The position numbers and the translations under genes were made by a program. A stretch of DNA of 64,000 bases from positions 97 to 64,096 of the forward strand of contig JAPOKG010000001.1 of assembly GCA_029977785.1 (NCBI GenBank), read 5' to 3'. Shown here in pieces: positions 4,167-56,477 of the stretch (position 1 is its first letter; each line of letters begins with the position of its first letter). The notes under the pieces are model-generated. The model did no database searches and was not told where the DNA came from. It saw only the letters and a list, made by a program, of their open reading frames with translations. This stretch comes from Actinomycetota bacterium (GTDB taxonomy: Bacteria; Actinomycetota; Actinomycetes; Nanopelagicales; Nanopelagicaceae).

Positions 4167-5174
4167 TTAGAGCCCTACTCCAAACTGGCGAGTGAAACGA
4201 AGATCGCCTTCGACAATGTCGTGCATATCCGTAATTCCGTGGCGAACCATCAAGGTGCGTTCAAGGCCCATGCCAAATGCAAAGCCTGTGTAAATATCGG
4301 TATCGATCCCACAGGTGGTAAGAACTCTGGGATTGACCATGCCGCAACCGCCCCATTCGATCCAGCGACCATTGAAGAAGATATCTACTTCAGCGCTCGG
4401 TTCGGTAAATGGGAAGAACGAAGGGCGAAGTCGAGTAACAACATCAGGCCCAAACATGTGACGCGCGAAGTTATCGAGCGTTCCTTTCAGATGAGCCATC
4501 GTGATGCCCTTGTCGATAACGAGACCTTCAACTTGATGGAAGACAGGGCTATGTGTGGCATCGAGTTCATCAGCGCGGAAGGTGCGTCCTGGGCAGATCA
4601 TGTAAATAGGGGGCTCTTGCGTCAGCATCGAACGAATCTGTACCGGTGAAGTCTGTGTGCGAAGAACTACACCTGATTCGATAGGTTCGATAAAGAAAGT
4701 ATCTTGCATGGTTCGTGCAGGGTGATCTGCTGGAATATTGAGAGCGTCAAAGTTGAGCCAACCTGATTCAAGCTCTGGCCCTTCTTCAACTGCATATCCC
4801 TGTTCGATAAAAAAGTCAGAGATCTCGTTCTTAATAATTGTTATTGGGTGTAGCCCCCCGCGGTGGCGTCGAGATACTGGCAGGGTAATGTCGACTACCT
4901 CTTCGAGAAGTACCTTTGCATCTCGTTCGGCTTCTAACTTCTCGGTAGCAACAGCCAGCGCCTTAGCAATCTCAGCCTTGGCATCGCCTATAAGTTTTCC
5001 AACGGATGCTTTCTCATCGGGTGCAAGTGAGCCAAGGGCGCGGCTGGCAAGAGAGATAGGAGCTTTATCTCCAGTGTGTGCAAGGCGTGCAACTTTGAGA
5101 GTTTCAAGATCATTTGCGGCAGAGAAAGCCTTCTGCGCATCGCTTATCCACGATGCAATATCTGCCGGATTCAT
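4167..5174 (-). CDS. pheS: Phenylalanine--tRNA ligase alpha subunit
   Basis: HPARTMQDTF, FHQVEGL, FPFTEPSAE, GFAFGMGLER motifs. Confidence 0.98.
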   Translation of the reverse strand: MNPADIASWISDAQKAFSAANDLETLKVARLAHTGDKAPISLASRALGSLAPDEKASVGKLIGDAKAEIAKALAVATEKLEAERDAKVLLEEVVDITLPVSRRHRGGLHPITIIKNEISDFFIEQGYAVEEGPELESGWLNFDALNIPADHPARTMQDTFFIEPIESGVVLRTQTSPVQIRSMLTQEPPIYMICPGRTFRADELDATHSPVFHQVEGLVIDKGITMAHLKGTLDNFARHMFGPDVVTRLRPSFFPFTEPSAEVDIFFNGRWIEWGGCGMVNPRVLTTCGIDTDIYTGFAFGMGLERTLMVRHGITDMHDIVEGDLRFTRQFGVGL

Positions 5175-47289: not shown

Positions 47290-47459
47290 GTATTGCCTTC
47301 CTGTTTTTCATGCTTTAAGTCCCGGGACAGGGAGGCATGAAGCGTAATGCTCAACCTACACTTGAGACAAGGCGAAGGCCTGGATTTCTTGGCGTAGGAG
47401 ATTACTTTTTGGTTACGAAATCACCGGGCTGAACAGTTCAGATAGGCGGCCGCAGAGGG

Positions 47460-48068
47460 CTATTTATCGAGGGCGGCCTCTGGGGAGATAACGGCATGGG
47501 CGACCTCTTTCATGGTCAGCCTTCTATCCATTGCAGCTCGTTGAATCCATGAAAATGCCTCTGGCTCAGAGAGATTGAGCGCCTTCATCAAGATTCCCTT
47601 AGCCCTATCGATAATCTTTCGAGTCTCAAGGCGCTCATGTAAATCGGCGACCTCTTCAGCCAAAGATCTCATCTGGGTATGTCGGCTGATGGCTATCTCA
47701 ATAGCGGGTACGAGATCGCCGATAGTAAATGGCTTGACCACATATGCCATCACACCAGCATCACGAGCACGTTCAACTAATTCTCGTTGGCTAAATGCAG
47801 TCAACATCAGAACTGGCGCTATCGAAATGATTTTTTCAGCTGCAGAAATTCCATCAAGGATTGGCATCTTTACATCCAAGATAGCTAAGTCTGGTCGATG
47901 CTCAGTGGCAAGTGCGATTGCTTCTTCCCCATTGGTCGCTTGTGCAACTACTGTGTAACCGGCCTCCTGCAACATCTCAACTAAATCCATGCGAATGAGC
48001 GCTTCATCTTCCGCGACCAGAATTCGCACAGGTGTAGAACCAATCTGTGCTGATGCGTCGATGCTCAT
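47460..48068 (-). CDS. ANTAR-domain response regulator (PdtaR-like)
   Basis: REC domain (VAEDE, LDVKMP, LTA, YVVKPF) plus ANTAR (LETRKIIDRAKGILM...EAFSWIQRAAMDRR). Confidence 0.93.
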   Translation of the reverse strand: MSIDASAQIGSTPVRILVAEDEALIRMDLVEMLQEAGYTVVAQATNGEEAIALATEHRPDLAILDVKMPILDGISAAEKIISIAPVLMLTAFSQRELVERARDAGVMAYVVKPFTIGDLVPAIEIAISRHTQMRSLAEEVADLHERLETRKIIDRAKGILMKALNLSEPEAFSWIQRAAMDRRLTMKEVAHAVISPEAALDK

Positions 48069-48210: not shown

Positions 48211-49650
48211 TTATCGATAAGCAGCGGCTACACCATTTACGGCATCGCCAACTTTATGTACACGCATCGCATTGGTAGATCCAGGAATTCCAGGAGGCGA
48301 ACCGGCAACGATCATCACAAGTTCGCCCTCAGCGGCACGCTTACCGTCGAGAAGCATTTTATCTGCCTGCAGAACCATCTCATCTGTGTGCTTAACCATT
48401 GGAGTAACCAAAGATTCCACTCCCCATGAAAGTGCCAAGCGATTGTAAGTGCCGTCTTCTGGAGTGATTGCCAGAATTGGAATAGGTGAACGTAAACGGC
48501 TGATGCGACGCGCAGAATCGCCTGATTGCGTGAAAGTCACGAGGAATTTTGCACCGACTATCGCACCAACTTCTGCAGCTGCCTTGGTGATTGCTCCACC
48601 CTTAGTTCGTGGTGAGTTCATAAGTGGGCGAATACGTTCAAGGCCCAATTCTTCAGTTCGTTCAATGATGCGCGCCATAGTTTTTACTGATTCGATTGCG
48701 AATTCACCAACTGAGGTTTCGCCAGAGAGCATCAAGGCATCTGCGCCATCCAGCACGGCATTTGCACAGTCTGTGGCTTCAGCACGAGTTGGACTTGAGT
48801 TTGTAATCATGGAATCAAGCATCTGCGTTGCGACGATGACTGGCTTTGCAGCATCACGCGCTAGTTCAACACAGCGCTTTTGCACCATAGGGACATCTTC
48901 AATTGGAAGTTCTACGCCAAGATCGCCACGAGCAACCATGATCCCATCAAATGCTTCAACGATTTCAACAAGATTGGCGACAGCTTGAGGCTTTTCAATC
49001 TTTGCAATAACTGGAATGCGGATACCAACCTCATCCATAATCGCATGTACATCTTTAATATCTGCCGCGTTTCGTACGAATGAGAGCGCAATGAAATCTG
49101 CACCAGCCCGAAGTCCCCAACGAAGATCATCCTCATCTTTTTCAGACATCGCAGGAACAGATACAGCAACTCCAGGGAGATTTATTCCTTTGTTATTACT
49201 GACAAATCCTGGCTGGATGCACTTCGTGACAACATCGTTGCCCTTAACTTCAACCACTTCAACAGTGACCTTGCCATCATCGATAAGAATGCGATCTCCA
49301 GCTTTGCAATCCCCAGGTAGGCCTTTATAGGTAGTTCCAACGCGCTCTTTAGTTCCAGGAACTTCATCAGTGGTAATTGTGAAAATATCGCCGCGAGCTA
49401 ATTCATGTGGACCATTTTCAAATCGCGCCAAGCGAATTTTTGGGCCTTGCAGGTCAACAAGGACTGCAACTGCCTTGCCTGCCTCTTTTGCAGCTTCACG
49501 TACGCGATTTAGGCGACCTTGGTGCTCATCATAGGAACCATGAGAAAGGTTAAGGCGCGCCATATTCATTCCAGCCGCAATAAGTTCACGAACTTTTTCG
49601 GGAGATTCAACGGCAGGTCCAAGTGTGCAAACTATTTTCGCGCGGCGCAT
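48211..49650 (-). CDS. pyk: Pyruvate kinase
   Basis: KIVCTLGP, DLQGPKIR, IAKIEK, MVARGDLGVE, ATQMLDSM. Confidence 0.98.
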   Translation of the reverse strand: MRRAKIVCTLGPAVESPEKVRELIAAGMNMARLNLSHGSYDEHQGRLNRVREAAKEAGKAVAVLVDLQGPKIRLARFENGPHELARGDIFTITTDEVPGTKERVGTTYKGLPGDCKAGDRILIDDGKVTVEVVEVKGNDVVTKCIQPGFVSNNKGINLPGVAVSVPAMSEKDEDDLRWGLRAGADFIALSFVRNAADIKDVHAIMDEVGIRIPVIAKIEKPQAVANLVEIVEAFDGIMVARGDLGVELPIEDVPMVQKRCVELARDAAKPVIVATQMLDSMITNSSPTRAEATDCANAVLDGADALMLSGETSVGEFAIESVKTMARIIERTEELGLERIRPLMNSPRTKGGAITKAAAEVGAIVGAKFLVTFTQSGDSARRISRLRSPIPILAITPEDGTYNRLALSWGVESLVTPMVKHTDEMVLQADKMLLDGKRAAEGELVMIVAGSPPGIPGSTNAMRVHKVGDAVNGVAAAYR

Positions 49651-49689: not shown

Positions 49690-51144
49690 CTAGACCATCA
49701 GTGGTCGAGTAGTAGGTTCGATTGGTGCATGGAGTTGAGTTTCTCCGGTCAGGTAGCGATCCACAGCAGCCGCTGCTGAGCGCCCCTCAGCGATAGCCCA
49801 GACAATCAGTGACTGCCCGCGCCCTGCATCCCCTGCAACAAAGATTCCCTCTTCACTGGTTTGGAAATTTTCATCACGTGCAATATTTCCGCGATCATCG
49901 AGTTTTACTTCAAGCTGATCAAGGAGCGCCGACTTCTCAGGACCGGTAAAGCCCATCGCAAGAAATACAAAGTCAGCAGGGATTTCTTTCTCAGTACCAG
50001 GAACAGGTTCAAACTTTCCGTTCTCAAACTTTGTTTCAACTATCTTGAGAGCCTTGAGATTTCCTTTACCGTCTCCCACGAATTCTTGAGTGCTGACAGA
50101 GAAGACACGATTATCAAGCTCTTCGTGCGCACTAGAAACGCGGTAAATCATTGGATACGTTGGCCATGGTTGCGAAGATGGTCGTTCTTCAGTTGGGCGA
50201 GGCATAATTTCAAGTTGCGTCACGCTGGCTGCACCTTGGCGAACAGATGTACCTAAACAATCCGCACCAGTATCTCCACCACCCAAGATGATGACGTGCT
50301 TTCCAGCAACGTTTATTGGCGGTTGTTCAATCTCACCGAGCGCTTGCTTATTTCCCCACGGTAAGAACTCCATCGCTTGATAGATTCCTTTGTTCTCACG
50401 ACCAGGAATTGGAAGATCGCGCCACTGAGTAGCGCCAACAGCCAATACGACTGCATCGTACTTAGCGCGTAAATCTGAACCGGTGAGTTCAACGCCGACA
50501 TTTACACCAGGACGGAATCGAGTTCCCTCCTGCTCCATTTGAGTGAGGCGACGATCGAGGATGTGCTTCTCCATCTTGAATTCAGGGATTCCATATCGAA
50601 GCAGCCCACCAATTTTCTCAGCGCGGTCATACACAGCAACAGTATGTCCGGCTCGTGTCAGTTGTTGAGCAGCAGCAAGACCTGCAGGACCCGAACCAAT
50701 GACAGCGACAGTCTTTCCAGATAAGCGTTCTGGCGCTAGCGGCTTTACATTATTGGCATCAAAAGCCTCTTCAATAGTGCGAAGTTCAACTTGCTTGATG
50801 GTTACCGCATCGCGATTGATTCCAACAACACATGCAGTTTCGCACGGCGCTGGGCAGAGGCGACCAGTGAACTCAGGGAAGTTATTGGTTGCATGAAGGC
50901 GGTCGATAGCTTCAACTTTATCTCCACGGTAGATGAGGTCATTCCACTCAGGAATGAGATTGCCCAGTGGGCACCCTGAGTGGCAGAACGGAATACCGCA
51001 ATCCATACAGCGACCAGCCTGTTTCTGCAGGTGCTCAAAAGACTGTGGTTCGTAGACCTCTTTCCAATCTTTGATACGGACATCAACAGGTCTGCGCTTT
51101 GGGGTTTCGCGCGGTGTGGTCATAAATCCTTTTGGATCAGCCAT
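49690..51144 (-). CDS. gltD: Glutamate synthase small subunit
   Basis: [44 protein letters not shown]. Confidence 0.97.
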
Positions 51145-54100
51145 TTGCTACTACCTCCATTACATATTCATCCACTGGTAGACCCTCACGGTTTGCTTTC
51201 TCAATTGCTGCAAGTACGCGTGCATAGTCACGTGGCATGATGAGTGAGAAGCGAGTCACCTCAGTATCCCAGTTCTTCAATAAGTTCGCTGCAACTTCTG
51301 AACCAGTTTCAACGTGGAAGGTTGAAATAATTGAGCGAAGAACTTCACGTTGATCTGCTGGAACAGCGAGCACATCAACCATTTCAGTATTAACAATTGC
51401 TGTATCTAGATCAAGCACAAAGGCGCGACCACCAGACATACCTGCTGCAATGTTGCGACCTGTTGGGCCGAGAATCACTGCAGTTCCACCAGTCATGTAT
51501 TCAAGTGCGTGGTCACCTACTCCCTCAACAACTGCAGTTGCTCCAGAATTTCGAACACAGAAACGTTCTCCAACTAGGCCACGAATAAAGATTTCACCTG
51601 AAGTTGCGCCATAACCGATCACATTTCCGGCGATCACATTCTTTGCAGATGGGAAGGTTGCCTTCTCATCTGGGCGAACAATGACTCGGCCTCCGGAAAT
51701 TCCCTTACCGACATAATCGTTGGAATCGCCATAGAGTCGCAGCGTTAAACCTTGCGGAATAAAGGCGCCAAGAGATTGTCCGGCAGAACCATGCAGAGTG
51801 ACATCGATGGTTCCAACTGGTAGCCCTGCAGCTCCATAGCGTCGAGTGATTTCAGCACCCAACATTGTTCCGACTGTGCGATTAACGTTACGCACAGGAA
51901 GATCAATGCGAACAGGCTCCTTTTTCTCGAGCGCCAGCTTTGCGAGATCAATCAAGGTGTTATCAAGGGCTGCAGCTAAGCCATGATCTTGTGTTGTGGT
52001 CTGATGAAGCGGTGATTCAACATCAGGACGTACAAGAAGTGGAGAAAGATCTAGGCCGCTTGCCTTCCAGTGATCAATGGCAGCCTTGGTATCGAGATAT
52101 TCAACATGGCCAACAGCTTCAAGCAAGGTACGAAAGCCAAGGGAGGCCAAGATTTCGCGAACTTCTTCAGCAATGTACTCAAAGAAAGTCTCAACAAACT
52201 CTGGCTTTCCGGTGAATTTCTTTCGCAGCTCTGGGTTCTGTGTCGCAACACCCACTGGACAGGTATCCAAATGGCAGACGCGCATCATGATGCAACCCGA
52301 AACCACAAGTGGCGCTGTTGCAAATCCATACTCTTCAGCACCGAGCAGCGCCGCAATTACAACATCGCGGCCTGTCTTTAGCTGACCATCTGCTTGAACA
52401 ACGATGCGATCACGTAGCCCGTTGAGTAGAAGTGTCTGCTGCGTTTCTGCAAGACCTAGCTCCCAGGGCGCACCAGCATGTTTCAATGAAGTCAAAGGCG
52501 ATGCACCAGTTCCACCATCGTGTCCTGAAATAAGAACAACATCAGCATGAGCTTTAGAAACACCGGCAGCCACAGTTCCGACTCCAACCTCGGCTACCAA
52601 CTTCACATGCACGCGGGCATCTTTATTGGCATTCTTCAGATCATGAATCAACTGAGCCAAGTCTTCAATGGAATAGATATCGTGATGAGGCGGTGGCGAA
52701 ATCAGACCCACACCTGGTGTTGAAAAGCGCGCCTTAGCAATCCACGGATAAACCTTATTTCCAGGTAGCTGTCCGCCTTCGCCCGGCTTTGCGCCTTGTG
52801 CGATCTTGATCTGAATATCAGTGGCATTTATCAAGTAGTTGCTTGTCACGCCAAATCGTCCTGAGGCAACCTGCTTGATTGCAGATTTCTTCGAATCTCC
52901 ATTTGGTAGAGGGGTATAGCGCACTTCATCTTCGCCACCTTCACCAGTATTTGATTTGCCACCCAAGCGGTTCATAGCGATTGCCAACGTCTCATGGACT
53001 TCTTGTGACACAGAGCCATATGACATCGCACCTGTTGAGAAACGTTTCACAATTTCAGAGATTGGCTCAACTTCATCAATTGAGATTGGTGCACGTTCTC
53101 CTTCCTTAAATTCGAAGAGTCCGCGCAAGGTCATCAAGGTCTTACTCTGATCATTGACCTTAGATGTATAACGCTTAAAGATGTCGTAACGCTTATTGCG
53201 GGTTGAGTGCTGCAAAGCAAAGACTGTCTCAGGGTTAAATAGATGGGGCTCACCATCGCGACGCCATTGGTATTCGCCGCCAACGGCAAGGCGCTTTGCT
53301 CCTGGAATTTCGCCGCCTACTGGGTAAGCGAAATGATGACGTTTAATAGTCTCTTCAGCGATGACATCGAGGTCTACTCCACCAAGTCGTGAAGTTGTGC
53401 CGACAAAGAATTCGTCGACTACATCTTGTGCTAAACCAATTGCTTCAAATACCTGTGCTCCCGTGTATGAGGCAATTGTTGAAATACCCATTTTGGACAT
53501 TACCTTCAGAACGCCCTTGCCGAGACCCTTAATAACATTGCGAACTGCCTTTTCAGGGGTGATGCCGGTGATAACGCCTTGATTAACAAGATCTTCAGCT
53601 GTCTCCATAACCAAATATGGATTTACCGCTGCAGCTCCGTAGCCAATCAAGAGCGCGACATGGTGCACCTCGCGGACATCTCCAGCTTCAACAACTAGAC
53701 CCACCTTCGTGCGTGTCTTTTCGCGGATTAAGTGGTGATGAACAGCTGCTGTCAGCAATAGTGATGGGATTGGGCAATCTTCAGCATCGCCATCGCGATC
53801 AGAGAGCACAATGATGCGCGCACCTTTAGCGATTGCATCTGAAACTTCGCGCTTGATTTCTTCTAAGCGAATACGAAGAGTGTTTCCGTCTCCTGAAACC
53901 GGAAAGAGACCACGAACAACATAAGCCTCAAGTCCTGGGTAATCATCATCCGCGTTAACGTGAATAATCTTGGCCAGCTCATCGTTATCGATGACAGGAA
54001 ATGCCAAAGAGATTTGTTTGCATGATTCAGGGCCAGGATCGAGCAGGTTATGTTCTGGGCCTAGTGATCCGCCCAAACTAGTTACTAACTCTTCTCGAAT

Positions 54101-55654
54101 TGCATCGAGTGGTGGGTTTGTAACTTGCGCAAAAAGCTGTGTGAAGTAATCAAAGAGAAGTCTTGGCTTCTGTGAAAGCGCCGCGATTGGGGTATCCGTA
54201 CCCATCGAACCGAGCGCTTCTCCCCCGCTCTTTGCCATTGGAGTAATGATGATTTTGATTTCTTCTTCGGTATAGCCAAACGCTTTCTGGCGGCGAATTA
54301 CAGATTTATGTGGGTAGACAATGTGTTCGCGTGAAGGAAGATCAGAGAGTTTGATCATTCCATCTTTGAGCCACTGTCCATAAGGGGCTGCATCAGCGAG
54401 TGAATCCTTAATCTCATCATCTTCAATGATGCGGCCCGCTTCAATATCAACAAGGAACATCTTGCCTGGTTGCAGGCGACCTTTGCGAACAATCTTCTCT
54501 GCCGGGAAATCTAGTACGCCAACTTCTGATGCAAGTACAACAAGACCATCATCAGTAACCCAGAAACGAGATGGGCGAAGGCCATTGCGATCGAGCACTG
54601 CACCTACTTGATGGCCATCGGTAAATGTCACACACGCAGGCCCATCCCAGGGTTCCATAAGTGAGGCATGGAACGCATAAAAATCACGACGCTTCTGAGG
54701 CATCGTTGCATGGTTTTCCCATGCTTCAGGAATCATCATTAACACTGAATGTGGAAGTGAACGCCCACCAAGATAGAGAAGTTCAAGCACTTCATCAAAT
54801 GATGCTGAGTCAGAGCCTGACATTTCAACAATTGGAAAGAGGCGCTTGAGGTCTCCCCCGATGAGATCGCTAGCAAGGAGCGATTCACGCGCGCGCATCC
54901 AGTTACGGTTTCCCTTTACAGTATTGATTTCACCGTTGTGAGCGATAAAGCGATATGGGTGCGCCAGTGGCCATGATGGGAAGGTATTTGTTGAAAAACG
55001 TGAGTGAACCAGGGCAAGCGGTGAGACCACTCTTACATCGCTGAGATCAGGGAAGAACTCTTCTAGTTGTCCAGTTGTGAGCATTCCTTTATAAACGATT
55101 GTCTGAGAAGAAAGTGATGCGAAGTAAAGATCCAGAGTGTGTTCAGCTCTCTTGCGAAGTGCAAACGCCAATCGATCGAGCGCCAGACCTGCTTCGTTCT
55201 TTTTTCCTGCAACGAAGAGCTGTTCAAACTTTGGCATCACAGAGAGCGCTGTCTTACCGAGAGATGATGGGTTAATCGGTAATTCGCGCCACCCTAGAAC
55301 TGTAAGTCCTTCTTCATCGGCAATCTTGGCAATCTCGCTCTGAACATCTGCGCCCTGTGCAATAAATGCAATACCAGTTGCATATGAACCTTCTGCAGGA
55401 AGTGCTAAATCAGTGACAGCTTTGTAGAAGGCATCAGGAACGCGGATGAGAATTCCCGCACCGTCACCACTATCGGGTTCAGCACCGGATGCGCCGCGGT
55501 GTTCAAGATTACGAAGTGCGGTAAGCGCCTTCTCGACAATTTCATGTGTGGCAACTTTATTGAGGGTGGCAACCATGGCAACGCCGCATGCATCATGCTC
55601 TTGTGCGGGATCGTAGAGACCCTGGCGTGCGGGATAGTTCGATGAGAGTGCCAT
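51137..55654 (-). CDS. gltB: Glutamate synthase large subunit
   Basis: [51 protein letters not shown]. Confidence 0.98.
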
Positions 55655-55750
55655 AACCCGTTGTCCTTTTTTCGTAAAACAAAAGGGACAACTTTGGCCC
55701 GTGAGCGGTAAGTAATGGTGCTCCTACCCGCTTCAGTAGCGAAAGAGTAG
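55655..55750 (-). promoter_or_regulatory. gltB promoter and structured 5' leader with an SD-sequestering stem
   Basis: -10-like TACTCT near 55744-55749; inverted repeat gttgtccttttt (55660-55671) / aaaagggacaac (55681-55692) covers the purine-rich RBS. Confidence 0.6.
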
Positions 55751-55763
55751 CAACCTAGGTGGT

Positions 55764-56477
55764 TTAGATGCCACTTATATGCAGCGCCTGCCCGATTCCA
55801 GCGGTGATGGCCATACCCAGGCAGCCACCGGCTATGACTCGCACGGTGGGAGTAAGCAACTTAGATCCTGCGATTCGGGCGCTCAAAATCCCAGTGAAAG
55901 TTAGGCCGATGAGGGTGAAGGCGACGATACTCCACGCGGCTTTTCCGGGTGTCGGAGCAAATGCCCCAACAAATGGAATGAGACCACCTGCAGTAAAGCT
56001 AAGTGCCGATGCAATTGCTGCTTGTACGGGACGAGCCTTGGTGTGAGGGTGTTGGCCTAACTCGTCACGAAGATGTGCAGCGAGTGGATCTTTCTGATGC
56101 ATCGCTTCGGCAACATGTACTGCTAAATCTCGTGAAAGACCGCGCTGCATATAGATTTGAACCAGCTCTTCTAATTCGCCCGCAGGGTCTATTGCAAGAT
56201 GTTCAATCTCTAACAGGCGATCAGATTCTTCAATGTCATTTTGAGAACGAACTGAGACGTATTCACCAACGGCCATTGACATAGCACCTGCTGCAATTCC
56301 AGCGGCTCCTGCTGTGATGAGGAAACTCTGTTCGCCGGCGCGCGCTGCAGCAACACCAATCATCAAACTTGCAGTCGAAACTAAACCGTCATTGGCGCCA
56401 AGGACGGCGGCACGTAACCAACCAGCGCGATGAGTGCGATGGCTGAGATTACGTTGATAGACATCCTCTAAACCCAT
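55764..56477 (-). CDS. VIT1/CCC1-family Fe/Mn transporter
   Basis: LRAAVLGANDGLVS, GAMSMAVGEYVSV, H.RDELG. Confidence 0.93.
   Translation of the reverse strand: MGLEDVYQRNLSHRTHRAGWLRAAVLGANDGLVSTASLMIGVAAARAGEQSFLITAGAAGIAAGAMSMAVGEYVSVRSQNDIEESDRLLEIEHLAIDPAGELEELVQIYMQRGLSRDLAVHVAEAMHQKDPLAAHLRDELGQHPHTKARPVQAAIASALSFTAGGLIPFVGAFAPTPGKAAWSIVAFTLIGLTFTGILSARIAGSKLLTPTVRVIAGGCLGMAITAGIGQALHISGI

Follow-up and report, generated by a model that had tools for sequence, protein, structure and literature searches.

The window, a stretch of 64,000 nucleotides (nt) from an Actinomycetota bacterium (Nanopelagicales, Nanopelagicaceae; GCA_029977785.1, contig JAPOKG010000001.1, positions 97-64,096), was analysed with regard to the leader of gltB, the gene of the glutamate synthase large subunit. 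In the list of open reading frames, gltB occupied 51137..55654 on the minus strand; its ATG start codon was read from the sequence at 55654-55652 (minus), and the N-terminus of GltB agreed with 60/61 relatives. The gene order was trpA, MauE/DoxX, DsbA-like, lgt, VIT1, gltB, gltD, pyk, tRNA, REC-ANTAR and liv-type binding protein. Pfam analysis placed gltD (49690-51144, minus) directly after gltB and pyk (48211-49650, minus) after gltD. In the reading developed below, gltB is the proposed regulated gene, and the proposed effector is the REC-ANTAR response regulator at 47460..48068 (minus; 202 residues), in which Pfam detected Response_reg (PF00072) and ANTAR (PF03861).

A spacer of 109 nt separated the end of the VIT1-family gene (55764) from the gltB start (55654). 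Read 5' to 3' on the minus strand, it consisted of a TTGC-TACTCT box, an unconserved hairpin, the hairpin GGGCC-AAAGUU-GUCCC (designated P1), a variable stretch, GGACAAC, GGGUU and the ATG (55654). The TTGC-TACTCT box (55744..55753, minus) fitted the consensus of an extended -10-like promoter element (TGnTAnnnT), and the gltB transcription start site was predicted at about 55740-55736, which would place P1 within the transcript. In 48/63 leaders of the order, TGnTAnnnT preceded GGGCC by 6-50 nt; high-GC relatives had TAnnnT, frequently with TG before it (TGTAACCT, TGTACAAT), mostly 13-17 nt upstream of GGGCC. With a -10-like element so near GGGCC, P1 is predicted to lie close to the mRNA 5' end and to be transcribed first.

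As the original prediction had proposed, the leader contained two mutually exclusive structures that share the nucleotides GUCC, P1 and a longer downstream helix designated state B. P1 (55685..55700, minus) had a stem of four Watson-Crick pairs and a conserved C-U mismatch around a hexaloop with A at position 1 (A1, 55695) and G at position 4 (G4, 55692). Its conservation was investigated in gltB leaders collected via the first 300 GltB residues from 30 same-genus genomes, all 13 genera of the order (a single family), other Actinomycetia and other classes. This gave 140 distinct leaders, and position counts were made on 70 distinct leaders; some of the genome tallies given in this text include the unpublished genomes G042, G050, G059, G255, G261, G461, G601, G617, G645, G680, G708, G730, G752, G792, G802 and G814, and no individual claim depends on these. 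In the 70 leaders the 5' arm read G (68), G (70), G (70), C (70) and C (70), and the 3' arm read G (70), U (69), C (70), C (70) and C (67), so that at most 3/70 leaders deviated, at the outermost pair. The loop read A (67/70), two positions at which the four bases were about equally frequent, G (69/70), one further unconstrained position and a pyrimidine, which bears out the ANTAR-type loop signature that had been claimed for it. In an alignment of 25 leaders (A1, described below), the P1 stem was 99% paired, with four standard pairs around the 6-nt loop.

The state-B hairpin (55660..55692, minus) was defined from the minimum-free-energy (MFE) fold and from compensatory changes. Its 5' arm GUUGUCC (55692-55686) overlapped P1 loop positions 4-6 and GUCC, its 3' arm was GGACAAC (55666-55660), and its distal extension was CUUUUGU/ACGAAAA. 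The long stem predicted earlier, GUUGUCCCUUUU/AAAAAGGACAAC, was recovered with 11/12 pairs at 55692-55660 as the core of the MFE fold. A terminator scan of 55400-56100 found no intrinsic terminator; the state-B stem was followed by GGGUUAUG, with no U run. The likely Shine-Dalgarno (SD) sequence AAGGA (55664..55668, minus) was located by sequence within the state-B 3' arm region. The earlier claim that the stem buries the ribosome-binding site (RBS) thus holds in the window, but in many relatives the SD (AGGAG or GGGAG) lay directly 3' of the state-B 3' arm or overlapped it. The apical region between the two arms was variable, with lengths of a few to some 100 nt.

The two arms of the long helix changed together. 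Leaders with GUUGUC had the exact complement GACAAC downstream in 24/35 cases and GACGAC in 0, whereas leaders with GUCGUC had GACGAC in 49/79 and GACAAC in 2; in a paralogue, GCAGUC was matched by GACUGC downstream. In alignment A1, whose 25 leaders were picked for alignable apical loops and therefore carry a selection bias, the 8-pair helix was 93.5% paired, compared with 26-58% for slid partners. Three helix pairs of A1 had changed on both sides (e.g. U-A/C-G/A-U at loop position 3), and its covariation score was reached by 0/500 shuffles. A covariance model built from A1 aligned 67/100 diverse leaders (alignment A2, fitted to the model and so biased towards it), in which 86% of cells were paired versus 30-40% with slid partners, G-U pairs being present. 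The 33 unmatched leaders came mostly from genera in which GUCC(C), inspected by eye, seemingly pairs with other SD-containing arms (GGAGCGAUC, UCGGGAG, GGGAC-GGCCC). These patterns argue that the long helix is a real RNA structure. The alignment and covariation check suggested with the original prediction was thereby answered in part: the long helix covaries, and the loop A and G and the alternative stem are conserved in the order, but P1, with its near-invariant arms, shows no covariation.

A separate arrangement was observed in genus g28 of the order (L048-L051), in which the downstream arm was GGGA(N)C-GG(C/A)CC and the whole 16-mer, including GGGCC, was pairable with the hexaloop as a bulge. 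In this genus gltB appears to start at UUG.

An imperfect inverted repeat such as GGGCC-N6-GTCCC, with invariant half-sites just 3' of a -10 element, might also be a DNA operator for a transcription factor of gltBD. However, the conserved centre was asymmetric, with A at position 6 and G at position 9 of the 16-mer while the mirror positions varied; the downstream arm covaried, with G-U pairs workable only in RNA of this strand; and the distance to the -10 element ranged over 6-50 nt. To our knowledge, the actinobacterial nitrogen boxes (GlnR, AmtR) are unlike the 16-mer. We rejected the operator as the main explanation and consider it very improbable.

A small-metabolite riboswitch, e.g. for glutamine, glutamate or 2-oxoglutarate, would suit a two-state leader that precedes a central nitrogen-assimilation gene and is conserved over much of the phylum. 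Against this, just two conserved unpaired positions were found outside the helices, there was no junction or pocket-like core, and the apical region ranged from few to about 100 nt. A scan of the window with Rfam 15 gave no match in the leader at E-values up to 10, glutamine riboswitches included, and example leaders of Streptomyces, Microbispora, Nocardioides, Bifidobacterium and Acidimicrobiales gave no match at E-values up to 1. The riboswitch was likewise rejected as the main explanation; its chances appear slight.

Folding calculations showed that P1 by itself is weak (-3 to -4.5 kcal/mol). Enforcing P1 cost a mean of 7.1 kcal/mol (140 leaders), and the unconstrained MFE fold paired GUCC downstream in 104/140 leaders. 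A weak P1 next to a favoured long helix implies that P1 would require a stabiliser or a kinetic window. The long helix by itself left three features unexplained, namely that GGGCC is invariant, that loop position 1 holds a purine and that the pair between G4 and C does not vary; among the 67 model-aligned leaders this pair was GC in 65, another standard pair type in 0 and unpaired in 2, though neighbouring pairs covary. A recognised hexaloop hairpin would account for all three.

The same calculations suit an explanation in which nothing switches, P1 being a 5'-terminal hairpin that protects the mRNA and the SD-proximal hairpin fixing a low translation of a very large, costly enzyme. P1 lies near the predicted mRNA 5' end in most taxa and has no covariation, and the long helix is thermodynamically dominant. 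A stabilising hairpin, however, needs no invariant arms, conserved mismatch or conserved G4, and both structures cannot act simultaneously as they share nucleotides. This explanation is improbable in our estimate, and the phyletic comparison given below also speaks against it.

The P1 16-mer was unique in its own genome, even with one mismatch allowed, and the covariance model likewise had one match there. Across the order, the motif occurred exactly once in 31/31 genomes with zero control matches, and it stood upstream of gltB in 13/13 genera, so that the hairpin described in the original prediction, including its C-U mismatch, is kept in all of them. When the pattern GGGCCANNGTCGTCCC was scanned against 185,579 species' genomes, at least 120 matches were obtained. 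Among the matches listed, 49 were directly upstream of gltB, and all 49 taxon-named records were Actinomycetota, including Streptomyces, Kitasatospora, Nocardioides, Saccharothrix, Nonomuraea, Micromonospora, Nocardiopsis, the metagenome-assembled genome (MAG) of a Bifidobacterium and several Acidimicrobiia MAGs. Many of the remaining listed matches were in other phyla and had no gltB downstream. Such a distribution points to a leader motif far beyond chance, and the putative hairpin appears to be widespread in Actinomycetia and Acidimicrobiia, almost unchanged and gltB-specific.

Loop variants were found in families f19, f22, f30, f34 and f48, which had G at loop position 1 (GACGUC, GAUGUC, GACGCC, GACGAC) and always C at position 6; G4 was retained in every loop variant. 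Tandem hairpin copies with a 6-nt linker stood directly before gltB in two MAGs of uncultured Actinomycetota, L182 (CAWCHF010000009.1; minus 4528-4565) and L197 (CAWCGJ010000042.1; 838-875). This layout is the canonical dual-hexaloop ANTAR arrangement, and only the second copy overlapped the long helix.

A partial check of ANTAR-containing families without the motif revealed gltB-type leaders with another hairpin, (G/C)AGC-AA(C/U)GGC-GCU(C/G), which had a covarying stem and an A1/G4 hexaloop (L248:1432-1445, L249:1384-1397, L250 (minus) 1293-1306, L269:1369-1382 and L270:1404-1417). Its loop AACGGC closely resembled the AACGUC of the gltB motif in high-GC taxa. No Rfam match was obtained for the five loci, and at three of them (L248-L250) the hairpin was followed by a G+C-rich inverted repeat and then a U run, so that this second leader type looks like a single-hairpin ANTAR antiterminator. 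It was also observed that the Mycobacterium-like genome G521 had a main gltB without the motif and a second gltB copy (L271:2425-2485) with GGGCC-GCUGCA-GUCCC and the 3' arm GGACUGC, doubly compensated.

The original prediction had built a tandem-hairpin reading on a second small hairpin, P2 (GAC-AACGG-GUU), whose loop has 5 nt and which lies 19 nt 3' of P1. P2 is present in the window but unconserved, relatives reading GGACAAC-AGGAG at this site, and the tandem reading gave way to a single hairpin in the window. A second hexaloop hairpin was sought upstream, downstream and in the apical region, and none was conserved in most taxa; in many high-GC taxa the -10-like hexamer lay about 10-17 nt upstream of the hairpin, too close for a second hairpin upstream. 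The further upstream hairpin AGCGG/CCGCU (55704..55732, minus) was also present as predicted, but beyond the window it occurred in just the two closest relatives, with an identical CCGCU arm in L002 and in altered form in L003, other same-genus leaders being entirely different at this site.

The regulator encoded after pyk and the tRNA gene matched PdtaR/Rv1626 of Mycobacterium tuberculosis (PDB 1s8n) over residues 11-195 with an E-value of 7.9e-71, and EutV (PDB 6wsh) with an E-value of 4.7e-39. It had the composition of a PdtaR-type protein, with a receiver and a C-terminal ANTAR domain, and these matches identify the predicted product of 47460-48068 as a PdtaR (Rv1626) orthologue. An ungapped alignment with EutV, for which residue roles were taken from PMC8934654, showed that the RNA-contact residues R142, K143, K149, E160, M172 and R175 were kept, while Tyr164 was replaced by Phe and R168, N173 and R177 differed. 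The partner kinase PdtaS (GAF_PdtaS, HisKA_2, HATPase) was encoded elsewhere in the same genome, on contig C22. In each complete genome of the order that had both coordinates listed, some 8 kb separated the ANTAR gene from the start of gltB, and the linkage recurred in several other families, e.g. in G254, G043, G054 and G087. In Streptomyces coelicolor, gltB is presumably SCO2026. PdtaR of this species is SCO2013; the PdtaS/PdtaR system, which is conserved in Actinomycetota, influences both development and antibiotic production in Streptomyces, yet none of its RNA targets is known outside mycobacteria (PMC9739842). In a pdtaS mutant of M. smegmatis, nitrogen-assimilation transcripts were reportedly reduced (preprint, bioRxiv 10.1101/615575).

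The phyletic distribution of the motif was compared with that of PdtaS/PdtaR. ANTAR was present in 387/401 sampled Actinomycetia; the 14 genomes without it were 11/12 genomes of family f32 (the twelfth had a weak match) together with G302, G326 and G404. Ten f32 genomes and G404 were also without gltB, and G404 was without PdtaS too. Two f32 genomes, G283 (100% complete) and G306 (completeness 96%), have retained gltB, yet neither the motif in its leader nor PdtaS was found in them. The motif is thus gone where PdtaS/PdtaR was lost while gltB stays, which a merely protective hairpin does not account for. The drafts G302 (91% complete) and G326 (96%) had the motif and no ANTAR match, none adjoining pyk, yet both encode PdtaS (E-value about 1e-120). 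As incomplete drafts still with PdtaS, they were set aside as counterexamples, and their ANTAR regulator is probably unassembled.

Among other classes, the motif was missing from nine gltB-containing genomes that had no ANTAR match, but also from most of the ANTAR-containing genomes checked, including same-genus or same-family partners of three ANTAR-less genomes; comparisons outside Actinomycetia therefore carry no weight. In the genomes sampled, the motif was confined to those with the PdtaS/PdtaR system, yet absent from some of them. This confinement and the orthology to PdtaR are in keeping with the REC-ANTAR protein as a plausible effector, the role first suggested for it.

The behaviour proposed for P1 and the long helix resembles that of known systems. 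NasR/nasF of Klebsiella and AmiR/amiE of Pseudomonas are reportedly cases of ANTAR antitermination of nitrogen genes in which a leader hairpin and A1 and G4 of its loop matter; NasR and AmiR are said to sense ligands via other domains (NIT, or the AmiC partner) and to act on terminators. In contrast to these, a two-component REC-ANTAR protein would here act on translation. The leader also shares the anti-SD/anti-anti-SD logic of SD-sequestering riboswitch platforms, with SD-proximal GGAC/GGGA, then GUCC, then GGGCC, but no ligand aptamer was evident, and the protein is proposed to bind the anti-anti-SD hairpin.

The closest likeness in structure is to EutV and the eut RNAs of Enterococcus faecalis (Ramesh et al. 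2012; PMC8934654), which also combine a REC-ANTAR regulator with an A1/G4 hexaloop hairpin. As in the eut antiterminator RNAs, the gltB hairpin shares nucleotides with a stabler competing helix, and binding would redirect folding. The gltB leader differs in that its competing helix is SD-proximal and not an intrinsic terminator with a U run, that most taxa have one hairpin with an invariant stem and a C-U mismatch, and that the target is gltB and not the ethanolamine genes. Walshe et al. 2022 (PMC8934654) showed that each ANTAR domain binds one hexaloop, so that the minimal motif is a single hexaloop; the flipped-out G4 is stacked on Tyr164, the loop is plugged by Met172, and the protein leaves A1 uncontacted and touches only the backbone of the stem. 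The same paper foresaw single-hexaloop sites where the polymerase imposes no time limit.

The likeness to the mycobacterial and actinobacterial RNA targets of PdtaR/Rv1626 (PMC8164766, and Mehta et al. 2020 cited therein) consists in the same regulator orthologue, a proposed translational control and hairpins near the RBS. According to Mehta & Ramesh 2021 (PMC8164766), actinobacterial ANTAR RNAs are dual stem-loops that cover the RBS, their binding represses translation, the search definition needs two stem-loops, and nitrogen genes are known to be under ANTAR control through AmiR, NasR, EutV and Geobacter regulators. Unlike these dual, RBS-covering and repressing Rv1626 targets, the gltB hairpin lies upstream, competes with a sequestering helix and would predict activation. 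The terms 'glutamate synthase' and 'gltB' do not occur in the text of PMC8164766 or in those of its supplementary tables that were searched, and no description of a gltB leader motif in Actinobacteria or of a PdtaR-gltB link was found in the literature searched.

Set beside the features by which ANTAR-target RNAs are defined, P1 is a hexaloop stem-loop with at least three base pairs (with the C-U mismatch and the low stability as caveats), it carries A1 and G4 in nearly all of the 70 leaders, with G1 in some other families, and the motif co-occurs with an ANTAR protein. The hairpin is also exclusive with an RBS-proximal structure, its 3' arm and loop positions 4-6 forming the 5' arm of the SD-proximal helix. 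The gltB element is best filed as a putative variant of ANTAR-target RNAs with a single hexaloop and translational anti-sequestration, its membership being incomplete for want of the dual hairpin.

Taken together, the gltB leader would be a two-state translational switch in which the weak P1 (GGGCC-ANNGNY-GUCCC) competes with a more stable helix, since GUYGUCC, made of the 3' part of the P1 loop and the 3' arm, can pair with GGACRAC at or in the SD region. The unbound RNA would fold into the long helix and ribosome access would be reduced. P1 would be made first during transcription, and the phosphorylated PdtaR-type regulator, encoded after gltD-pyk-tRNA, would bind its hexaloop via a flipped-out G4. 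Bound regulator would keep GUCC in P1, the ribosome site would stay open and translation of glutamate synthase would be ON. We infer the binding of the protein, the direction of the effect and the physiological signal of PdtaS, and give a probability of roughly 0.55 to this reading, a translational ON switch in which phosphorylated PdtaR would lend stability to the weak 5' hairpin and so free the ribosome site.

The same switch might be run by another operator, such as a different RNA-binding protein or a small RNA, or it might need nothing more than temperature or the kinetics of co-transcriptional folding. The structural data do not name the effector, the element is gltB-specific with no visible regulon, the G1 variants and the C-U mismatch are unlike textbook ANTAR hairpins, and the Mycobacterium-like family f40 has PdtaR without the motif. 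The A1/G4 loop, the tandem dual-hairpin versions and the joint loss of motif and PdtaS/PdtaR all point to ANTAR, however, and no alternative factor emerged; we regard another operator as unlikely, though the least unlikely of the alternatives considered.

Several observations weigh against control by PdtaR. Two stem-loops with a 2-25 nt linker were not found in the window or in nearly all relatives, and gltB is absent from the published lists of actinobacterial ANTAR RNAs. P1 as a helix is suggested solely by complementarity and invariance; as its arms scarcely vary, the lack of covariation neither supports nor refutes the helix, and the conserved C-U mismatch falls at the second base pair from the loop. 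The G1/C6 loops could shrink to a tetraloop. The size of the translational effect is uncertain, since the SD of many taxa adjoins the long helix and does not sit inside it. Several ANTAR-containing classes were without the motif, and family f40 had many ANTAR proteins and a main gltB without it (in G375, the one f40 genome checked, this gltB was unlinked to the best-scoring ANTAR gene). The phyletic link reflects only one or two independent loss events.

Two further features were noted beside the regulator gene. A tRNA gene (48142-48070, minus; Rfam tRNA, 54 bits) stops 1 base short of the REC-ANTAR ATG (48068), so that the regulator is left without space for a leader or SD of its own; its mRNA may be co-transcribed with the tRNA and freed by tRNA processing. 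The leader of the liv-type binding-protein gene (47290-47459, minus), just 3' of the ANTAR gene, contained a CCUCCCUGU/ACAGGAAGG pairing with 8/9 pairs, a candidate SD-sequestering structure, and a GUCCCGGGAC palindrome; inspection of this leader by eye only showed no ANTAR-type A1/G4 hexaloop hairpin.

A wider proposal, which we hold tentatively at a little below even odds, is that the conserved core role of PdtaS/PdtaR in most Actinomycetia and Acidimicrobiia, Streptomyces included, is to switch ON glutamate synthase translation via a single-hexaloop anti-sequestrator close to where the gltBD mRNA begins. If true, the leader would be a natural case of ANTAR action in which one hairpin activates translation, a mode that structural work has foreseen but that is undescribed. 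The near-invariant 16-nt hairpin before gltB is a concrete candidate target of PdtaR, and a new RNA family could be seeded with the 140 leaders. Nitrogen enters biomass mainly through glutamate synthase, Actinomycetota include antibiotic producers and abundant freshwater plankton, and PdtaS/PdtaR affects virulence-related responses in M. tuberculosis. The switch would tie a kinase of cytoplasmic redox, metal or c-di-GMP sensing to nitrogen assimilation in these bacteria.

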